Virus record (IMG/VR): IMGVR_UViG_3300034257_000006
Span: 1 to 60,102 of that record
DNA from: a virus
Taxonomy: Duplodnaviria; Caudoviricetes
DNA: 60,102 bases
Strand: one strand, 5' to 3'
How positions within the stretch are numbered: the first letter of the stretch is position 1; each line of letters starts with the position of its first letter. Below are positions 2,792 to 12,102 of this stretch, piece by piece. Below the pieces are notes generated by a model that saw nothing but the letters and a program-made list of their open reading frames with translations, was not told the DNA's origin and ran no database searches. A program made the translations under genes and the position numbers.

Positions 2792-3058
2792 TTATTCCCT
2801 ACTTCGATTTTTTGTTTTTTGTCGGTGCGTCCATGCGTGCTTCAAATAAATGCCCCACTCCATTGCAGCAGCGTAGGCTTCGTCTCGGTCAGTGAAACAT
2901 CCTTCCGTCGTTTCTGTGTACACAGGGATGACTGGCATTGATTCACCTTTCTTCGGTGGGACCGACAGCAGTCGTCCACCGATACGATGACCGCGATCGG
3001 TTAGAAGGTCGAATGATCCGTCACTCATTTCATTTACTCTGATTCTCACCTGCATCAT
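2792..3058 (-). CDS. Hypothetical protein
   Basis: Coupled ORF. Confidence 0.55.
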   Translation of the reverse strand: MMQVRIRVNEMSDGSFDLLTDRGHRIGGRLLSVPPKKGESMPVIPVYTETTEGCFTDRDEAYAAAMEWGIYLKHAWTHRQKTKNRSRE

Positions 3059-3492
3059 CGCACTCCGGCCAGCAGCACATCGCCAATAAACACCCGAAAC
3101 TCATCCACCGTATAAAAGCACAACCCAGTACTCGCTGCCAGATCCCAGCAGCCGACTTTCTCCCGCTCGTAAGTCACCCAGATCTTCAACATCTCATCCG
3201 GATCCGAGATCTTCATTGACGTCACCTTGCTCAGCACAATCGTGTTGTCCGCTGAGTAGTCCATCGCATTTCCGTCGCGCGGAAGCACCATGGCTCCTCT
3301 GTACCATATTCCAGAGAGCAACCGCCACACCGGATGCGTCGTGCCGTCGATCACAACGGCTATCTGTTTCACGCCGAGCTTCGAGATTACGTTCGTTGTG
3401 ACTAGCCGAGTGTGGCCTTGCCAGCAAACGCCGTTGCGGTCGATGTAGATGCCGGGAGCCCACACGATCATTCTTTTGGCGATGGAGGTCAT
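3055..3492 (-). CDS. Degenerate HNH-like protein
   Basis: VWRLL...VLPRDGNAMDYSADN parallels HNH_3 VHRLV...VxHxDGNxxNNxxxN with the His residues lost. Confidence 0.4.
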   Translation of the reverse strand: MTSIAKRMIVWAPGIYIDRNGVCWQGHTRLVTTNVISKLGVKQIAVVIDGTTHPVWRLLSGIWYRGAMVLPRDGNAMDYSADNTIVLSKVTSMKISDPDEMLKIWVTYEREKVGCWDLAASTGLCFYTVDEFRVFIGDVLLAGVR

Positions 3493-5052
3493 TGAACCAC
3501 AATCTGCATTTTTTCTGTAAATTTATCCGATAACTGAGACAGGTGTTGAAACACTTCTTTTGCCGTGTCCATGTCTCCGCAAACCATTACAAACGGAAGA
3601 TCGAAGCAGTGCCACTTTCCTGGCTGAATGCTTTGCGCCTGGGGCTGATGTCTTGCGTTCATGTATTCGACAAGTTCATCTGGAAACTGAACTCCAGATC
3701 GTCTTTGCATTTCGTCAACACTAAGATTCCCAAGCATAAACGCCATCACAAAAGCCCCCTCTCGAAGTCCAACACATAATCCTCAATCCGCTCAAACGCA
3801 TCCAGCACGATACGCTCCAGTTCATTGTAAAACCCTAAGGAGTCCATCTCCTCCCCATCGTCATCAAAAACCTTCAACTCAACAACCCGAGGCTCCGAGA
3901 TCTCCACCTGATACGGACGCGACGTATCACCATCCGCAATCTCCGAGATCGTCAACTTCCGCGCCTCACAACGATACTCAACTGTTGCCGTCCCGAAGAT
4001 GGCATCAGTGAATTGGAATTCTTCCCACCACCAGCGTCCAGGACGGATGCCTGTGCCTCGGTTTGCGTCTTTGCGATGCACTGCGAATGATGCCATGATA
4101 CTTTCTTTCAGCAATTAACCATGAAATGGATTCGATCTGGATAATCACCGCAGGCACACTGAGTCTGCCATTCGTCGCCTTCTTTTCGGATGACTTGAGT
4201 CCATCCGTTTGAAGTTCCTGATGCGTTCAGTGAATTGCAGACATCAAGGATCTCCTCATCTGTTGCATCGGCAACTGCGCAAACCTGCATTGAAGCGATT
4301 CCAGCGAATGGCCACGTGATTTCGACTCTGTTCATCATTGACTCCTTAAATTCCATTGAACGATTGCCAAAGCGGCGGCTCTTTCTTCCCACTGATCTTT
4401 GTCGCCGTCGCCAGCAGTTTGAATGCGGACTTCTGGTCCACTTGCTCCACACTCATCACAGAAGACTCGACGCCATCGAGCCTTCTGCGACTGTGACTCT
4501 TGAACTGTTACAGAACAGACAGTTTGATGGTGTCATTTTACGTTCTTAGTATGTGTGATAACCATAAGCTCACCTGCGAGCTTGGCGATAATAAATTCCG
4601 CATTGCGATCTGGCGCAGGAAGCCCAAGTCCCCTCAACGCATCGCTGATAATCCTGCGAGCATTCACCCACTCAGCTACTGCTTCTCCGTTTTTCACTCC
4701 GGCACCATCGCATTTCCACACGCTTCGGCGAGGTGCAGCTCTACTTCATGATCGGCCATCGGCTTGCCGTACTTGATGATCGAATCAACCATCCAGTCGT
4801 ACCCACAGAATCCCGACGACTGAAGTCGCAACTTCCGAGCCTGATTCGAGTTCAATTCATGAACATCGATCCCGGCACACCATCCGTCATCCCATGAGTA
4901 ATGGTATCGACCATGTTCAAGGATTTTGACGGCAGTCTTGATTGACTCTTTGCCGACGAACGACCGGATCGTCGCGTACTTGCGTCCTTCTCCGTACCAC
5001 TTCCCGTTCCACGATGGACAACCGGGCATACTGAGTGTGAATCCGAGCATCA
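3489..5052 (-). CDS. Run of small hypothetical genes (3489-3749, 3746-~4098, 4108-~4338, 4533-~4697, 4694-~5052)
   Basis: Abutting minus-strand ORFs with plausible protein composition. Confidence 0.55.
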
Positions 5053-5136: not shown

Positions 5137-6879
5137 TTATTCCGAAGATTTTTCCGCCCTTGCTAACCATCGTCCATAGAGTGGTCCTCTTCTGAACTGT
5201 TTTCGTTCAAAACCCAGTGATTCCAGCGTCTCGTGGATCTGTCGAGAATTTATTGTGCCACCGTATGACGACCGATGTCGCCGGCTGACTTCGTCGATCT
5301 TCACGAGGATCCACACGGCTTCGCCATCGAAGTAATACCCGGTCAGCGGATCATCCTTTTCGCGGATGTCTGTGAGTCCGCCACCGTTCGGCACGCACTT
5401 CATTCGACCTTTGAATGCGTGGCCTTTGTCGATATAGAGTTGCAGGCCAGTCATGAGTTCGTCCTTATTGCCGATCATCGCCAGCACAATGTCTTCTATC
5501 TGATCGGCGATGCCGTTTTCTTTTTTCTCTTCGACGTCGGCCATCTTCTCAAGGAACTCGCGCAGGCCACGGGTGATTCCGTTCTGTTTCTTCTTGTCGT
5601 TGTCCTTGCCGTTCCAGATCGTCTTCCAGTCCCACCAAACGAACGACTGATTCAGGGCGAACAGTCCATTCGTCTGCTGCTTCATTCGCAGCGCAAACGA
5701 ACCTGGAGCCATGAATTCTTTCGTATGCATCGACACTTCATGTTCGCCTACCATAACCTGAATTAAATCCTCGTCGCCCTTCGTGACGTACTTCGCCTTC
5801 CAGTCACACTGCCACTCATCAATCCGCTCAGAATCCTGCTGCGTATGATCCATCGAAGGGTCCGGAACAAGTCTGATCCCGTGTCTCTTCAGGTAAGATC
5901 CGAATGACCTGTCATCAGCCGCCGACTCAGGAGCAGTCAGTTTCTGCTTTGCTTCGATCTCTTTGAGGAACTCGCCGTACATGAACGTCCGACTCGACTC
6001 GAAGATCACCTTCACTTCGGCTTCTGTCTTCGGCGGTTCACAGACGAGCAGGTTTGCCCCGGCCAAGGCCATCCAGACGTTGTCGATCGCGTCCTGTTCC
6101 TCGATCCCGTTGATACCTCGGATCTGGAACTCGCGACGCCACAGATGATTCGCCTGAACCAGCAGGGCATTGTGTCTTCCTGGGTGTCGCACCTTGCCGA
6201 TCTGCGATCGGAAGCACTTCGCATCACCGTTGCCACTGCTCGAAACACCAGAGGCTTTCTCTGCCCACTTCTTGCACGCCAGATCGACGATATGTTTCGG
6301 AAGCGGAATTATCGGGATGTCATCCGGCGACATACCTGGGATCCACTCGTACTTGGCTCCATTCTGGTGGATCGATGGCGGCGCAACGGACTGTGTCTCT
6401 TTGCCACGACCACCGAACCGCATCTCCAGTCCGTTGACGGTGAGGCTCGCCTTACCGGTCTCCGGAAGATCCGGAGTCCATCGGTAGATTCGATGGAGGC
6501 TCTTACCCGACGTGTACGTTGGAGCTGCATACCCCTGCAGGATCAGGTCTGCGAACTCACGCCCTTCGGGAGTATCATCTTCGAGATCGACGACTGCTTT
6601 GTCTGCCGGGATCCCGTGACACGGACCAAGGACGATCCCGACGTTCCACGGATCCTGCCATTGCTCCCGAATAACTTCTTCATCCTGCGTCGCCGACTTC
6701 CCCCATGCCGAAGCGACGGGGTGCTTACCGATGGAACCTTCGCAGTCTTTACTGCCGCAGGAACAGGTTGTCGTGTTGCCACGGAAGATCGGGTAATGGA
6801 GACGGACAGGATAAAATCCCTGACGGGCCAGATCGACGACAGCATCGGCTACGGCAGAAGTCACTACGCGGCACTCCAT
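5137..6879 (-). CDS. Bifunctional DNA primase/polymerase (Prim-Pol, AEP) protein
   Basis: N-terminal CSC..C..GKHP, NVGI, VVDLE, LHRIY and VAPPSIH motifs; PriCT-like GRHNAL; no Walker A seen in the C-terminal half. Confidence 0.85.
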   Translation of the reverse strand: MECRVVTSAVADAVVDLARQGFYPVRLHYPIFRGNTTTCSCGSKDCEGSIGKHPVASAWGKSATQDEEVIREQWQDPWNVGIVLGPCHGIPADKAVVDLEDDTPEGREFADLILQGYAAPTYTSGKSLHRIYRWTPDLPETGKASLTVNGLEMRFGGRGKETQSVAPPSIHQNGAKYEWIPGMSPDDIPIIPLPKHIVDLACKKWAEKASGVSSSGNGDAKCFRSQIGKVRHPGRHNALLVQANHLWRREFQIRGINGIEEQDAIDNVWMALAGANLLVCEPPKTEAEVKVIFESSRTFMYGEFLKEIEAKQKLTAPESAADDRSFGSYLKRHGIRLVPDPSMDHTQQDSERIDEWQCDWKAKYVTKGDEDLIQVMVGEHEVSMHTKEFMAPGSFALRMKQQTNGLFALNQSFVWWDWKTIWNGKDNDKKKQNGITRGLREFLEKMADVEEKKENGIADQIEDIVLAMIGNKDELMTGLQLYIDKGHAFKGRMKCVPNGGGLTDIREKDDPLTGYYFDGEAVWILVKIDEVSRRHRSSYGGTINSRQIHETLESLGFERKQFRRGPLYGRWLARAEKSSE

Positions 6880-7254: not shown

Positions 7255-7345
7255 ACATTACCCGCCATCCAAAAAACATTCAATAGTTTCATGGGAATTA
7301 TTCGACAATAGTGTTGACATCCTTTTGGAGAGATGCAATGCTTTG
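7255..7345. promoter_or_regulatory. Divergent promoter region
   Basis: Minus: TTGAAT-17-TAATGT (7283-7255); plus: TTGACA at 7314; strand switch point. Confidence 0.55.
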
Positions 7346-7423
7346 GTTTATTGGTGTTCCTGTTGTGTTGATTTGGTTCCTGAACGGGTTGACGTTTGGG
7401 TTTGAATTTTTGGAGAATGAGTG

Positions 7424-7636
7424 ATGAATCTGTATCTACTGAAACGCGATGACTATGATTACGACGAGCACGACGAAGCACTTATTCGTGCTGAAAGCGA
7501 ACAAAACGCAAGGAACATCGCAGAGAAGGAACTGACTGCGCCAAAAGATGCGTGGACTGAAGAGAAGGCAACTTGTGAAATTGTGACCGTTGATGGGTAT
7601 CTCGGCGTGGTTATTGAATCTTTTAATGCAGGTTGA
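7424..7636 (+). CDS. Hypothetical protein
   Basis: RBS GGAG; first gene of the plus-strand island. Confidence 0.7.
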   Translation: MNLYLLKRDDYDYDEHDEALIRAESEQNARNIAEKELTAPKDAWTEEKATCEIVTVDGYLGVVIESFNAG

Positions 7637-7656
7637 ATTTTTGGAGGATGAGTAAG

Positions 7657-7827
7657 ATGCTCGTAGTTTCTCGGAAGAACAGCGAAAAGATCATCATCAA
7701 CGAGAACATCGTTGTCACTGTGGTCGATATTGGTAGTGGACGCGTTCTCTTGGGAATCGAAGCCCCGAAGGAAGTGAAGATTGTTCGGTCGGAATTGGTT
7801 TTTCAGGATGGGCTCTGTGGAAAGTAA
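7657..7827 (+). CDS. csrA: Carbon storage regulator CsrA/RsmA family RNA-binding protein
   Basis: MLVVSRKNSEKIIINENIVVTVVDIGSGRVLLGIEAPKEVKIVRSEL matches the CsrA consensus including GIxAP..V.I.RxE. Confidence 0.93.
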   Translation: MLVVSRKNSEKIIINENIVVTVVDIGSGRVLLGIEAPKEVKIVRSELVFQDGLCGK

Positions 7828-8026
7828 TGCGAAACTTGCGGAAGCAATAGACAATGCCTGTAAGTCACTTCCGAGCGACTGTCATGTGCATCTGGTGATG
7901 GAGCAGTTCGCCGCCAACGTGCTCCTTGAGGTTGATGGCAAAGAGGTTGATTTTTCTTCGAATCGCGAAACACTGGCAGACACAATCAACGATGCGGTTG
8001 AGGCTGCGCAGGATCTCAACGGTTGA
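7808..8026 (+). CDS. Hypothetical protein
   Basis: Coupled ORF ending just before attC-1. Confidence 0.65.
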   Translation: MGSVESNAKLAEAIDNACKSLPSDCHVHLVMEQFAANVLLEVDGKEVDFSSNRETLADTINDAVEAAQDLNG

Positions 8027-8034
8027 GTGATCCT

Positions 8035-8120
8035 GCTGAACGCTGCCGCTAAAACGCGGCTGAGACAAATATAGTTTAATCTGACGGTCGGAAGCCGTCG
8101 TTTTCAGCGGCTTGTTCTGA
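8035..8120 (-). repeat. attC-like site 1
   Basis: Minus: TCAGAAC AAGCC GCT(G)AAAACG(A)CGGC...GCCGCGTTTTAGC GGCAGC GTTCAGC; two extrahelical bases. Confidence 0.85.
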
Positions 8121-8154
8121 CTCCGTGTCTTGTAGGTTCTATGGAGGTTATATC

Positions 8155-8520
8155 GTGAAAGGGTTCATTGAAGTTATCGGGTGGCTGTTCGCTGGTATCT
8201 TTGCAGTTGGGCTTCTCCTGGGCATTGGATGGGTCGTTCAAGGTAACGACTTTTTCATGTACCAGATGTTCGCTCCGAAGTACGAGAGCGTGCGGCGCGA
8301 AACGTTCGAACAGTCAAAGGCATTCAATCAGGGGATGATTCAGGAACTGCAGGACATGCAGTTTCAGTACGTCAAGGCCGCGCCGGAACACAAAGTCGCG
8401 TTGGCGTCGATCATCCTGCATCGCGTGGCAGATTATGACGAATCGAAACTTCCGACGGACCTGAGATCGTTTGTCTCAGGCTTGCGCCGGGAGCGATCCT
8501 TTACTGGAGAGAAAGAATGA
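8155..8520 (+). CDS. Membrane-anchored hypothetical protein (cassette 1, gene a)
   Basis: N-terminal hydrophobic helix; RBS GGAGG before GTG. Confidence 0.75.
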   Translation: MKGFIEVIGWLFAGIFAVGLLLGIGWVVQGNDFFMYQMFAPKYESVRRETFEQSKAFNQGMIQELQDMQFQYVKAAPEHKVALASIILHRVADYDESKLPTDLRSFVSGLRRERSFTGEKE

Positions 8521-9005
8521 GAGTGATTTTGGCGTTGATGACCTTGTTGCTTGTCGGATGCGAAATGGAAAAGAGCATCGACACTGTTCAACGAGAGCAA
8601 CAGGAAGTTCTTTTGAAAGAGGCAACGTCAGCAGTTGGAATGCCTGCGATTCACAATTTTCGCGAGCGAAAGATACTGAAGGACATTCTGGAACTTCGGG
8701 ATCAGGACGGACTGGTTACGTTCACGTACATTTTCAATGAACTGAATGGCACGCTGGTGTTCCTGGGTGAATCGATCGGCTACGGCATTCCTTACGCAAC
8801 GCAGTTCACGAACCCGGAGAAACTGGAGAGGGTTCATAAACTCGAAGCTCTTTACGAGGTCTTGCCTCAAGCTGATCCGAACGGCTTGTATTCTCCTGCG
8901 GCTGCGGAAGGAACGTGGATCTTGATGAAAGATCCAAAGGGAAGCGACGTGAAGCCGGTGTACGTTGAAGCCCGCGTCATTGTGTCGCCGTTCAGGCTAC
9001 TCTGA
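8517..9005 (+). CDS. Putative lipoprotein (cassette 1, gene b)
   Basis: Signal peptide with lipobox LVGC; YGIPYATQFTNP and PQADPNGLY motifs. Confidence 0.75.
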   Translation: MRVILALMTLLLVGCEMEKSIDTVQREQQEVLLKEATSAVGMPAIHNFRERKILKDILELRDQDGLVTFTYIFNELNGTLVFLGESIGYGIPYATQFTNPEKLERVHKLEALYEVLPQADPNGLYSPAAAEGTWILMKDPKGSDVKPVYVEARVIVSPFRLL

Positions 9006-9069
9006 TTGCTGGCATGGATGCCAAGCAACCGCTTGTGCTCACGCGAGGCAGGATGCCGGACGTGAGTAG

Positions 9070-9174
9070 TCAGAACGCTTGGCGTTTCTGGACCGCCTTA
9101 CATTTTTGAAAGAGATTCGATGCAAACGAAAACGGAAGAAACGAAGCCGGTTCCAGAACAAGCCATTGTTCACA
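9070..9174 (-). repeat. attC-like site 2
   Basis: Plus TCAGAAC...GGCGTTTCTGGACCG / CCGGTTCCAGAACAAGCC...GTTCACA; same two-bulge pattern. Confidence 0.8.
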
Positions 9175-9449
9175 CGCCTGGACCGTGGTTTACCCTGCAT
9201 GAAAGCTCAGCGATCGGAACAGGCGATATGACGATCGCCAGAGTGTACTGGTCGGAAGGGCGTAGTGACGCTGAGAACACGGCGAACGCTCGACTGATGG
9301 CAGCGTCACCAGACATGCTTGATGTGCTGAACAGGTTCGTCGCGTGGGACAAACGATACCCAAATAACACAATCCACTCCAAGGCTGGGGAGTGGCAACT
9401 TGATGAACTATTCAACGCCGCACGTGCGGTGATTTCGAAAGTCGTGTAA
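9120..9449 (+). CDS. HTPGPW-type phage protein (cassette 2)
   Basis: HTPGPW...ANARLMAASPDML motif; start codon inside attC-2 loop, TAA stop inside the next R box. Confidence 0.8.
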   Translation: MQTKTEETKPVPEQAIVHTPGPWFTLHESSAIGTGDMTIARVYWSEGRSDAENTANARLMAASPDMLDVLNRFVAWDKRYPNNTIHSKAGEWQLDELFNAARAVISKVV

Positions 9450-9508
9450 CGCTGCAAGTCTGCGGCGATTACATGGATGTCTTCGTCCGCAGCAATTGCT
9501 TGTTATGC
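9444..9508 (-). repeat. attC-like site 3
   Basis: Plus GTGTAAC...GCAAGTCTGCGGCGA / TCGTCCGCAGCAATTGC...GTTATGC; two bulges. Confidence 0.85.
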
Positions 9509-9528
9509 AGTTTTTTTAGGAGTGAGCA

Positions 9529-9897
9529 ATGTCTGGTATTCAATTCAGAGGCCGCAAGGATCACGAGCATTTAGATTCATCGTACAATTTGTGGGATGGC
9601 GAACATTTAGGAGACATCTCATCGTGGCATGCTGGTGATACCGTGGCTGTCTGTTTCGCGATCAGCAAAGAGCAAGAGAGTCTGATTCTCGACAACACTG
9701 AGTTGCCTGTCGGCAGCGGACTCGCCAGCGTGATGTGTGTTGTCGTTCGTCGCAGCCATTCGATCATCTGGAGGTCAGTTGGTCGGTTCGAATCGCTGAT
9801 AACGTGCTCAGTGCTGCTCGAAGCGGAGAGCGGACAATGGGAGGATGTGTTGAGGTACATCATATTCGGAAAGATGCCAGATCACTGGTCTGCATAA
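9529..9897 (+). CDS. Hypothetical protein (cassette 3)
   Basis: RBS AGGAG; stop TAA within GCATAAC. Confidence 0.75.
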   Translation: MSGIQFRGRKDHEHLDSSYNLWDGEHLGDISSWHAGDTVAVCFAISKEQESLILDNTELPVGSGLASVMCVVVRRSHSIIWRSVGRFESLITCSVLLEAESGQWEDVLRYIIFGKMPDHWSA

Positions 9898-9978
9898 CGC
9901 TTGGCACTTGTTGTCCGCGCGGAGTATTTTCAATTTCGAAGAACGTGGCACGCGGTCGGCAACGTGCCGTTGTTAGGG
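9892..9978 (-). repeat. attC-like site 4
   Basis: Plus GCATAAC...GGCACTTGTTGTCCGCG / CGCGGTCGGCAACGTGCC...GTTAGGG. Confidence 0.85.
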
Positions 9979-9986
9979 GGCTAGTG

Positions 9987-10301
9987 ATGCACAAGGGATT
10001 TAGGGACGCGATTCACGTTCCATTCGTCATGGTAACGTGCGGAGACACATTGAGGCCCGCGGAGAAGTGTTCACTGAGAGACGAAAACCAGTGTGTTCGG
10101 TGGCAAGGTGGAAGCCCTGATATTGAACCAATGTGGCACGGGATAGCCGATCCATTTCGGGAATCGGAAATACCTTCCGGAGAGGTGTTTCCGTTGTACA
10201 TTCGAAAGGAATGTTTTCACGGCCTCACGCACGATTTTCAAATTGAGGTTCACGACAGAGGCGGCACAGGCACATGCCATAGCGTTTGCGATATCTTCTG
10301 A
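9987..10301 (+). CDS. Hypothetical protein (cassette 4)
   Basis: RDAIHVP...GIADPF...LTHDF phage-type protein; AGGGGG of the R box serves as RBS. Confidence 0.7.
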   Translation: MHKGFRDAIHVPFVMVTCGDTLRPAEKCSLRDENQCVRWQGGSPDIEPMWHGIADPFRESEIPSGEVFPLYIRKECFHGLTHDFQIEVHDRGGTGTCHSVCDIF

Positions 10302-10305
10302 GTCC

Positions 10306-10375
10306 CCCTAACGCCGCGTGCTAACCGGTTTGGAGTGGCATGGATGCCTGTCCAAAGCCGGTGATTAGTGGGCCA
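10306..10375 (-). repeat. Degenerate attC-like site 5 / ORF-less unit
   Basis: CCCTAAC then bulged hairpin CTAACCGGTTTGGA / TCCAAAGCCGGTGATTAG; no closing GTT. Confidence 0.45.
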
Positions 10376-10390
10376 GTCGATTTGTGATTC

Positions 10391-10476
10391 GTTGAACGCT
10401 GCCAATCATTGGCAGCGGGGAAGATTTCGGAGAGTGGGCAGCGGTGGTCGCTGTCCAATGAATTGGCTTTTTATCT
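10391..10476 (-). repeat. attC-like site 6 with mutated R'' box
   Basis: Plus GTTGAAC...GCCAATCATTGGCAGCG / CGCTGTCCAATGAATTGGC...TTTATCT (TTT in place of GTT). Confidence 0.75.
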
Positions 10477-10489
10477 GCAGAGGTGGATT

Positions 10490-10705
10490 ATGGATGAGCG
10501 AGCAATATGGCTGAAGAGAGAAAACGACAACACGCTGACGGTTTCTGTCGAGGCTGGCGGCCAGTGGGTCGAGGTAATCCGAGAGCACGGCGATGGGCCA
10601 ATCAGTCACATCGTCGAACCGTCTGGAATCGAGAGGCGGATCAAAGAAGCTGCCACCGATTTCTCAGAAAAGGATTTGGCTGCATCTGGCGGATATGTGC
10701 GATGA
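10490..10705 (+). CDS. Hypothetical protein (last cassette-like gene)
   Basis: RBS GAGGTGG; stop overlaps the helicase start. Confidence 0.7.
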   Translation: MDERAIWLKRENDNTLTVSVEAGGQWVEVIREHGDGPISHIVEPSGIERRIKEAATDFSEKDLAASGGYVR

Positions 10706-12102
10706 GTGAACTCTGGTCGCACCAACCAAAAGCGATTTTATATCTGAACGAGCATGAAGCGTCGATGCTCGACGCGGCGATGAGCAGCGGTAAATCCTAC
10801 ATGTCAGTGCAGAACTGCAAGCACTGCGCTGCTCACAGAAACGCACGCACTCTGATTTTGTGCCCCGCTGCCGTTCGTTCTGTATGGAGAAGGGAGTTCT
10901 TTTTTCACGCACCAGATCAGTTCGACGTTGTCATTCTTGACGGCAAGCAGAACTCAGGAAAGAAAGCAGAACTGGTTTACGAGGCACTGCGACTTCAACA
11001 GTCGCATGGCAGGCCTCTGGTAGCCGTCGTGAATTACGAGTCGTTTTTTCTTGATCCTATCTGGAAAGTCCTGAACTCAGTTCTCTGGGATAAGCTGATT
11101 TGCGACGAGTCACATCGAACAAAGTCGTACTCCGCACAATGCAGCAAGCATGCATGGAAGATCGGAAAACGATCTGCTTCAAGGACCGGACTGACAGGTA
11201 CGCTGATGCCGAACAATCCAGGGAACGTCTTCAGTCAATATAGATGGCTGGACGAAAGGATCTTCGGTAAATTCTGGGGGGCGTTCAAGCAAGAGTACGC
11301 AGTGATGAGTCAATTCATTCCACATAAGGTCGATAAGTGGATAAACCTTGAAGAATTAAACCGAAAAGTGAACCTCATACGGTATCACATCCAGAAGTCA
11401 GTGCTCGTTCTTCCAGAGAAGCAGGACATCATAATCGAGGTGAACCTGTCTCCTGCCGGGATGAGGATATACCAACAAATGAGAAAAGAGTCGATCGCCT
11501 ACATCAAGAAGTCGATCGACGGACCAGAGACAGATGAACTGAAGACCGCGATCGGATCCAATGGAGCTGTCCAGTTCCTTCGCCTGCTTCAACTTTCACA
11601 GGGGTATGTCACAGACGACGAAGGCGACGAAGTAAACACAGACACAGAAAAACGCCGTGCATTACTGGACCTGATTCAGGATTGCGGAGAACCTGTCTGT
11701 GTGTACGGCTGGTTCCGTCACGATTTAAAATGCGTCGAGCGGTGTTGCGATATTTTGGGACTTCGGTACGGCGAGATCTCAGGTCGTCGCAAGGATCTTA
11801 CTGAGCACGCTACGATGCCAGACGATATCGACGTTATGGGCGTTCAGTGCAAATCTGGTTCTGCTGGCATTGACCTCACGCGAAGTCGAATCGGGATCAT
11901 CATGAACAGTGGTCTTCTGTCGCATGGAGACTTTGACCAAATGATCTCAAGGCAGGTAAGAACGAATCAGAAATCCAACGTAGTCTTTTATCATCTAGTG
12001 ACAAAGGGAACCGTCGAAACGAAGTTGATCGACGAACGAGGCCGTAAACGTGAAATCGTGGAAGTGTTGTTGTCCGAAATGAAGGAAGAGGAGGTGTTCT
12101 GA
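10702..12102 (+). CDS. SNF2-family (SF2) DNA helicase
   Basis: LWSHQ, MSSGKS Walker A, DESH, LTGTL, GIDLT and QMISRQVR motifs. Confidence 0.9.
   Translation: MSELWSHQPKAILYLNEHEASMLDAAMSSGKSYMSVQNCKHCAAHRNARTLILCPAAVRSVWRREFFFHAPDQFDVVILDGKQNSGKKAELVYEALRLQQSHGRPLVAVVNYESFFLDPIWKVLNSVLWDKLICDESHRTKSYSAQCSKHAWKIGKRSASRTGLTGTLMPNNPGNVFSQYRWLDERIFGKFWGAFKQEYAVMSQFIPHKVDKWINLEELNRKVNLIRYHIQKSVLVLPEKQDIIIEVNLSPAGMRIYQQMRKESIAYIKKSIDGPETDELKTAIGSNGAVQFLRLLQLSQGYVTDDEGDEVNTDTEKRRALLDLIQDCGEPVCVYGWFRHDLKCVERCCDILGLRYGEISGRRKDLTEHATMPDDIDVMGVQCKSGSAGIDLTRSRIGIIMNSGLLSHGDFDQMISRQVRTNQKSNVVFYHLVTKGTVETKLIDERGRKREIVEVLLSEMKEEEVF

Follow-up and report, generated by a model that had tools for sequence, protein, structure and literature searches.

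An integron-type attC cassette array with inverted gene orientation in the complete genome of an integrase-less tailed phage

Integrons have been studied mainly as bacterial gene-capture devices, and to our knowledge the origin of the cassettes they carry is still an open question. In the usual, but not obligatory, arrangement a cassette has its open reading frame (ORF) on the top strand and its attC recombination site downstream of that frame. The present work concerns a series of attC sites at 8039-10472 of the window, a term used here for the whole of IMG/VR virus record IMGVR_UViG_3300034257_000006, a tailed-phage genome of 60,102 bp with direct terminal repeats, rated 100% complete. A screen of 10,705 phage genomes by Qi, Rajabal, Ghaly, Tetu and Gillings (Qi et al. 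2023, PMC9892861), which required at least two attC sites within 3 kb, reported 17 attC clusters without an integrase, in virulent phages, and IntI1 recombined five of six phage attC sites in an assay. The central idea, integrase-less attC arrays in phages, is therefore already published, and we regard the window locus, in a phage without an integrase, as a true attC cassette array and as a new example of that published kind of element. The fuller reading, which we consider probable, is that 8039-10472 is a CALIN (cluster of attC sites lacking integron integrase) in a complete tailed-phage genome, recombined by an integron integrase that the host supplies. An earlier reading of this DNA, the original prediction, had proposed an attC cassette array, the lack of a recombinase and phage-type cargo, all of which stand, and had warned that attC sites in phages were not wholly unknown, as the 17 published clusters confirm; the novelty it attached to the locus is lower.

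Six attC-like hairpins, here S1 to S6, lie between csrA and the gene for an SNF2-type helicase. Five of them (S1, S2, S3, S4 and S6) are supported by a covariance model and S5 is decayed; all six, S5 included, fall within 4 nt of where they had been predicted. They occupy 8039-8116 (S1), 9074-9170 (S2), 9448-9504 (S3, the shortest), 9896-9974 (S4), 10304..10371 (S5, with its hairpin at about 10310-10365) and 10395-10472 (S6, the last site), all on the + strand, and the hairpins span 57-97 nt. Defined by the end triplets AAC...GTT (Nivina et al. 2016, PMC5027507), attC sites are represented in full by S1-S4, which start with AACGC and end with TTGTT; S5 has AAC...ATT and S6 AAC...TTT. An unpaired central spacer separates R and L boxes, and extrahelical bases stand opposite the cleaved AAC. 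In S1-S4 and S6 the bulged bases are confined to one arm, as the original prediction had it, and on the + strand this is the 3' arm; the S1 3' arm reads AGCCG[T]CGTTTT[C]AGC GGCTT GTT. The hairpin of S6 is intact, read by eye as AAC GCTGCC AAT CATTGG CAGC ... GCTG[T]CCAATG[A]ATT GGCTT TTT, and scores 13/13 in the geometry described below, with GTT changed to TTT. The decayed S5 keeps its hairpin and the box CCCCCTAAC, ends in ATTAGTGGG, and has lost the spacer geometry.

Inverted 9-mer pairs (GTT-N6 / N6-AAC, 150-1500 nt apart) number 20 in the window versus 6.9 (sd 2.7) in Markov shuffles, and the occurrence of five pair starts within 2.5 kb was matched in one of 300 shuffles. Only three of the 20 pairs belong to the array, and codon or strand composition may explain the excess elsewhere. 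The bare pair count is a weak, noisy statistic, and the hairpin structure itself was therefore tested. A fixed attC geometry was taken from the aadA1 site of plasmid R100 and scored as 13 pairs, G-T counted. On the top strand of class 1 sites it runs from the 5' end as AAC, 5 nt, 3 bp, bulge, 6 bp, bulge and stem, and returns as stem, 6 bp, 3 bp, 6 (or 5) nt and GTT. Scanning with this geometry recovers five of five class 1 sites (scores 13, 13, 12, 12 and 11), each of them on the strand that does not carry the gene. The array sites that the scan picks up in the window are S1 at 13, S2 at 12, and S3 and S4 at 11 of 13, all on the + strand; shuffles average, per 60 kb, 5.15 hits scoring at least 11, 0.475 scoring at least 12 and 0.04 scoring 13. 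Five same-strand hits fall within 2.5 kb in the window, and none of 200 Markov shuffles exceeds three. A further hit at 9285-9337 (AACGCT...GTT inside the P5 ORF, 11/13) was set aside as probably due to chance, the covariance model R2 not finding it; the ANARL codons homologous to this stretch are conserved in viral contig L040.

A covariance-model check had been proposed along with the original prediction, and it supports five window sites as integron-type sites delimiting cassettes, in agreement with the geometry and with the box complementarity discussed below. A first model, R1, made from the aadA1, aadA2 and gcuF sites, proved too sequence-specific. Its best window match was S3 (13 bits, E 1.2, with the - strand read as top), and because it missed dfrA1 and dfrA12 it was replaced by a second model, R2. 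Scanning public collections with a pattern derived from the phage sites, followed by the geometry filter, had yielded attC arrays in two bacterial bins, L109 and L105, and R2 was trained on 11 attC sites, all of them from this pair of bins. When sites of differing length were aligned with plain MAFFT the 3' arms came out misaligned, and this route was abandoned; the structure of R2 was set by hand, and the model was searched with filters off. As controls we used the class 1 sites of aadA1, aadA2, gcuF, dfrA1 and dfrA12 from plasmids R100, NZ_CP017935 and NZ_CP029737. R2, untrained on any of them, found all five (aadA2 4.8e-10, aadA1 8.7e-10, gcuF 3e-8, dfrA1 1.8e-7, dfrA12 1.5e-5), in every case on the strand opposite the gene. 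Its five array matches in the window, E 1.4e-8 to 7.2e-3, are all on the + strand: S4 (32.9 bits, E 1.4e-8), S2 (31.0 bits, E 6.9e-8), S1 (30.6 bits, E 1e-7), S6 (20.7 bits, E 3.6e-4) and, with the weakest score, S3 (17.1 bits, E 7.2e-3). S5 was not found by R2 at E up to 10. Matches at E <=1e-3 occurred in only four of the 80 bacterial loci drawn in by the pattern, and 12 of 61 viral loci had an R2 match. Elsewhere in the window R2 matches 2027-2112 on the - strand (E 6.3e-4), the remainder having E >=0.76. That stretch has no AAC and no GTT and was rejected as an attC site; it has a 13-bp stem with one bulged T and then a T-rich tail, lies between two - strand genes, and is probably an intrinsic terminator.

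Intrinsic terminators and repetitive extragenic palindromic (REP)-like elements are imperfect intergenic hairpins too, and the array might be read as ordinary RNA or DNA structures of this sort (terminators, RNA-stability elements or REP-like repeats) with no role in recombination. The sites are intergenic, four of the six fold better than shuffles on the + strand (z -2.9 to -4.5; -3.6 for S1), and attC sites reportedly have weak terminator activity (Qi et al. 2023, PMC9892861). The array hairpins differ from terminators, however, in their AAC/GTT ends and fixed bulge positions, and they do not show a GC-rich stem followed by a run of T, ending instead in TTGTT. Terminator-like sites number five in 7300-10900 versus 3.3 expected, with one partial match within S1 and no whole hairpin. 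S2 overlaps the 5' end of a coding sequence, R2 picks out the hairpins alongside five of five true attC sites, and a terminator offers no explanation of why boxes should be complementary to those of a neighbouring unit. We consider a reading as ordinary intergenic structures very improbable.

The complementarity is extensive. Three pairs of boxes match at 9/9 positions, GTTCTGACT (8114-8122) with AGTCAGAAC (9068-9076) around cassette A, GTTATGCAG (9502-9510) with CTGCATAAC (9890-9898) around cassette C, and GTTAGGGGG (9972-9980) with CCCCCTAAC (10304-10312) around cassette D; the fourth pair, GTTCACACG (9168-9176) with CGTGTAAC (9443-9450) around cassette B, is complementary over 8 bases with a one-base gap. 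The original prediction had singled out this pairing of each R box with the far box of the neighbouring unit, and the pairing is the footprint of cassette recombination. The outermost boxes (GTTCAGCAGGAT and its counterpart at S6) have no partner in the window. Measured from AA|C to AA|C, and all on the + strand, cassette A (8041..9075) carries the ORFs P3 and P4, cassette B (9076..9449) carries P5, cassette C (9450..9897) carries P6, and cassette D (9898..10311) carries P7. In B and C the stop codon TAA lies within the box TAA|C, and in D the box GTTAGGGGG doubles, in our own reading, as a Shine-Dalgarno-like stretch. The array consists of four cassettes with five phage-type ORFs, plus an 85-bp remnant containing S5. 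Whole ORFs fit units delimited by AA|C, whereas units delimited by G|TT on the + strand would split P5. In P5 cassettes both recombination boxes lie inside the coding sequence, GTTCACACG encoding V-H-T of IVHTPGPW and the complementary box supplying the two final valine codons together with the stop; one G has been lost from the window copy, whose stop has gone from TGA to TAA.

Four features mark the + strand as the recombinogenic bottom strand: the bulge position, the 6/5 spacer, G-T pairs that the - strand does not have (two of them in S4, for example, and others beside every AAC) and the strand on which R2 matches. Bulged bases on the arm opposite the cleaved AAC, together with G-T pairs, are the bottom-strand marks described by Nivina et al. 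2016 (PMC5027507). The cut is therefore predicted at AA|C on the + strand, the breakpoint that the original prediction had also named. All five cassette ORFs lie on this bottom strand, which is thus the coding strand, and each attC stands upstream of its gene, the reverse of a top-strand ORF with attC downstream. Inverted orientation is the most unusual feature of the array, and it is the orientation, not the integrase-less phage array itself, that looks new. The passages of Qi et al. 2023 (PMC9892861) that we consulted do not speak of cassettes in inverted orientation, of attC sites containing a start codon or of phages from metagenomes, and literature searches on inverted phage cassettes and on attC arrays in viral metagenomes returned only that study for phages; a 2026 permafrost paper kept only integrase-bearing integrons (PMC13323075). 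Chromosomal integrons are reported to keep their bottom strands on the leading-strand template; inversion of the Vibrio cholerae array, with the bottom strand on the lagging-strand template, greatly raised cassette excision (PLoS Genetics 2024, PMC11023631), and the phage orientation is for this reason mechanistically interesting. Inversion would put the recombinogenic strand on the non-template strand, and on the lagging-strand template if the genes run with replication; GC skew is positive over 8-14 kb of the window.

The original prediction had seen no tyrosine recombinase in the complete genome, and six-frame searches bear it out: PF00589 (tyrosine recombinase) has no match in the whole 60-kb genome, and PF00239 (serine recombinase) has none in the window, while both families were matched in most or all of 14 control genomes. 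No attI was recognised in the window. The locus is accordingly not a complete integron, with intI, attI and the promoter Pc beside the array; with five model-supported sites within 2.4 kb and no PF00589 in the genome, it classifies as a CALIN. The sites could in principle serve a phage-encoded recombinase that has escaped recognition and that mimics attC geometry, instead of a host IntI, given that many window ORFs lack any family assignment and that the gene orientation is unlike that of bacterial integrons. Against such an enzyme stand the negative six-frame searches for both recombinase domains, the fit of the sites to a model trained on arrays of IntI-encoding genomes, and the likeness of a site in a related phage (site B of G001, described below) to a bacterial attC, from the Planctomycetaceae bin L109, with which it is 85% identical (94% with a site in viral contig L072). 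We regard a phage-encoded enzyme of this kind as extremely improbable.

Under the reading in which the host supplies the integrase, each attC would fold as single-stranded DNA, and a host integron integrase would bind two folded sites and cut the bottom strand between A and C of the 5' AAC. One strand would be exchanged and the junction resolved by replication, so that a cassette could leave as a circle or be inserted at an attC already present. Circles are predicted for 8041-9075, 9076-9449, 9450-9897 and 9898-10311. Each cassette would then run in the order attC, ribosome site, ORF, with the ORF stop in or just ahead of the next AAC.

Sequence comparisons support the original claim of phage-like cargo, the cassette genes belonging to virus-dominated families. 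Cassette A encodes P3 (8155-8520, +), a membrane protein with an N-terminal transmembrane helix, and P4 (8517-9005, +), lipoprotein-like, with an LVGC lipobox and a match to phrog_24725 (1.7e-32); the Atlas clusters nearest to P4 are 64-95% viral, "putative lipoprotein" among them. The overlap of P3 and P4 recalls spanin or superinfection-exclusion pairs, as an impression only. P5 (9120-9449, +), whose start codon at 9120 falls within the loop of S2, matches phrog_1273 (5.4e-14). No family was found for P6 (9529-9897, +), and P7 (9987-10301, +) has only weak PHROG matches (3.4e-4).

A related phage carries its array elsewhere. Three viral contigs share the helicase at 61-68% identity, and PF00589 has no match in any of the three. 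The closest, G001 (contig L001; 63 kb, rated complete, helicase 68% identical), has attC sites on its - strand at 2025-2106, 2360-2444 and 2617-2699 (R2 E 7e-21 to 2.7e-11). They belong to a 1.75-kb block (L001 1673-3416) of about six small ORFs inserted between genes at 1191-1673 and 3416-3862, and the window homologues of these two flanking genes (2792-3058 and 3055-3492) are directly adjacent. Two G001 cassettes have boxes complementary at 9/9, GTTAGCCAG / CTGGCTAAC and GTTATGTGG / CCACATAAC. Its genes are also on the bottom strand, and one ORF starts inside an attC and has its TAA within TAA|C. At its end the G001 array has a single box CCACATAAC (on the - strand, at about 1733-1741 of L001) that no hairpin follows. 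As the window and G001 arrays occupy different positions, they are accessory blocks in two related phages. Comparison of the csrA-helicase interval among relatives, proposed with the original prediction, shows a locus that varies, being a gap of about 460 bp without hairpins in G001 and 4.7 kb of other small genes in L003; neither phage has attC there. Further helicase relatives in metagenome contigs, four short loci, showed no attC upstream.

R2 finds multi-site arrays in other viral contigs as well, L032, L035, L040 (to which L044 is identical), L066, L068, L072 and L079, next to a tape-measure gene (L035), a Sak4-like annealing gene (L040), a methyltransferase/primase gene (L066) and a primase-helicase gene (L072). 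Cassette units were counted over nine viral contigs, with the duplicates L044, L050 and L088 and the single-site contigs L056 and L073 dropped and two geometry-only sites added. The longest ORF is on the bottom strand in 26/30 viral units versus 5/12 bacterial units, and on the top strand in 4/30 versus 7/12; the viral arrays are therefore no random sample of bacterial arrays. At least 8 of 9 box positions are complementary in 24/30 viral units and in all 12 bacterial units, and the ORF stop lies within the next box in 17/30 viral versus 3/12 bacterial units. The inverted design is common to the window and eight other viral contigs. In 18 of 39 viral sites an ORF of 50 aa or longer begins at an ATG within the attC, and in 12 of those 18 GTT is read as a valine codon, giving similar leaders that end in ...A-I/V-V. 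Half of the ORFs tested (five of ten bottom-strand ORFs from other viral arrays) have PHROG matches, among the array genes being a Mom-like DNA-modification gene at L066 1977-2495 (-) (phrog_1384, 1.2e-32), a bottom-strand cassette whose start lies inside attC. The P5 family (phrog_1273) is a cassette in three arrays with different neighbours, those of the window, L035 and L040; in the L040 P5 cassette (5558-5927) the boxes GTTCACACG / CGTGTGAAC are complementary at 9/9, and P5-family boxes are still complementary between copies that are 35% identical in protein.

Tentatively, and with rather less confidence than we have in the array itself, we suggest that these cassettes are a phage-adapted form. 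The ORF would lie on the recombinogenic strand, the upstream attC would often supply the ribosome site, the start codon and a leader ending ...A-I/V-V (GCC ATT GTT), the stop would lie in the next TAA|C, and uncultivated phages would have a common pool of such cassettes, exchanged with the chromosomal integrons of hosts by way of the host integrase.

Is the window array instead a relic, one that illegitimate or homologous recombination copied whole out of a chromosomal integron of a host and that is now inert, with no integrase acting on it? In favour of a relic are the lack of an integrase in the phage, the decay of S5, the loss of GTT from S6 and the identity of the array in two samples, and Qi et al. 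2023 (PMC9892861) have raised off-target or illegitimate recombination as an entry route. A wholesale copy of a bacterial array, however, sits poorly with cargo of virus type, with ORFs that all run with the phage operon, with the excess of bottom-strand ORFs in viral over bacterial units, with boxes still complementary in most viral units and between divergent P5-family copies, and with arrays at different places in two related phages. We think it unlikely that the array is an inert relic.

Bacterial integrons that could furnish an integrase were sought in the bins with arrays. L109, from a Planctomycetaceae bin, has 7 to 8 attC sites in 5 kb, and L105, from a Thermoanaerobaculia bin, has 4 to 5. 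Both bins have an integron integrase above the TIGR02249 cut-off of 265 bits, which none of the 14 control genomes passed; the Thermoanaerobaculia bin scores 462, and the 324-bit integrase of the Planctomycetaceae bin is a partial gene at a contig end. The L109 cassette 3368-4482 carries three overlapping bottom-strand ORFs (3403-3618, 3612-3869 and 3866-4483), the first starting in the attC loop, and a DUF1559 gene of L109 (1132-1848, 1.7e-24) has the usual top-strand orientation. The bottom-strand cassettes of L109 fit an exchange between phages and host integrons, without identifying the host of the window phage. No other site compared exceeds 72% identity to a window site, and the link to a host therefore rests on the relative G001 rather than on the window phage, for which a Planctomycetaceae-like host is only a lead. 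Two other routes to a host were tried and rejected, the primase-polymerase giving only a 30% match, in a Peptococcaceae bin, and the helicase being at most 31% identical to those of isolated phages. In a Thermoanaerobaculia bin, G005, attC sites (L213 693-788; L215 93-186 and 727-820) lie beyond the 3' end of the integrase, with the top strand on the integrase's strand, a layout called an "inverted-integrase integron" in the permafrost paper (PMC13323075).

Several observations weigh against a CALIN worked by a host integrase. Contigs of an independent run, X2, span S1, S2, S3, S5 and S6 (and S4 in part) with no differing letter, and no recombination joints occur in them, though rare circles would not be visible in contigs; those of X3 cover small parts of the array. 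The decay of S5 and the loss of GTT from S6 mean that part of the array may be inert. Model support comes from a custom model, R2, and S3 scores weakly even there (E 7e-3). L109 was itself retrieved with a pattern derived from phage sites, the integrase of its bin is on another contig, and the limited identity of the window sites to all others has been noted above. Homologues of P4, P5 and P6 in viral contigs (10, 1 and 1 loci by protein search) have no attC-like flanks, in a scan whose background was 26 geometry hits at 11 or more in 114 kb, L015-L019 included; protein search found no P7 homologues in viral contigs. Since the contigs hold no recombination product and S5 and S6 are damaged, it is from anatomy and footprints that we infer the action of a host IntI on the sites, continued activity of the array, and a host with an integron of its own.

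The window, whose sequencing runs are labelled peat metagenome, encodes a large terminase (phrog_979, 2.4e-83), a portal protein (phrog_21, 1e-13) and a primase-polymerase, besides the CsrA homologue and the SNF2 helicase that flank the array. On the left, csrA (7657..7827, +; PF02599, E 3.6e-19), which is upstream of the helicase in relatives L001 and L003 also, is followed by P2 (7808..8026, +; 72 aa, from the ORF list, no family above cut-off), the last gene ahead of the array. Beyond the array come P8 (10490..10705, +; 71 aa, from the ORF list, no family found) and the helicase (10702..12102, +; PF00176 1.8e-20, phrog_62 3.9e-81), the right backbone flank.

A complete virulent-type phage and at least eight viral contigs thus carry compact cassettes whose recombination sites run into coding sequence and signals for translation. 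Should a host integrase act on them, accessory genes would be swapped in modular, site-specific fashion among phages and with host integrons, and such cargo, in other arrays, includes the Mom-like DNA-modification gene. The contrast in orientation with class 1 cassettes and with the phage TJE1 offers a natural experiment on strand placement and cassette dynamics.

Tetrasphaera phage TJE1, whose array is one of the 17 published, resembles the window in having several attC sites that delimit small genes and no integron integrase. R2 finds three sites there, at 248-289, 1020-1071 and 1466-1515 on the - strand (E 1e-5 to 8e-4). Unlike in the window, the bottom strand is opposite orf1-orf3, which are on the + strand, and each gene is followed by its attC. 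The bacterial bins of L109 and L105 share with the window the same type of attC, neighbouring boxes complementary at 8-9/9 (in 12/12 units) and, in L109, some bottom-strand cassettes; they differ in encoding IntI and in having the longest ORF on the top strand in 7/12 units. Class 1 cassettes share the anatomy of the window sites: read on the bottom strand, both have AAC, a spacer of 6 nt (or 5 nt), an L box of 3 bp, 6 bp and then the stem, while the opposite arm carries a bulge, 6 bp, a second bulge, 3 bp, a spacer of 5 nt and GTT. They have in common the letters AACGCTTG... and ...TTGTT, as well as complementarity between cassette ends, and the first bulge in the window is C on the bottom strand, as in dfrA1. 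Class 1 integrons, however, place intI1, attI1 and Pc beside an array of top-strand genes, with resistance genes in the cassettes, while the window array has bottom-strand genes, no integrase, and cargo of phage type.

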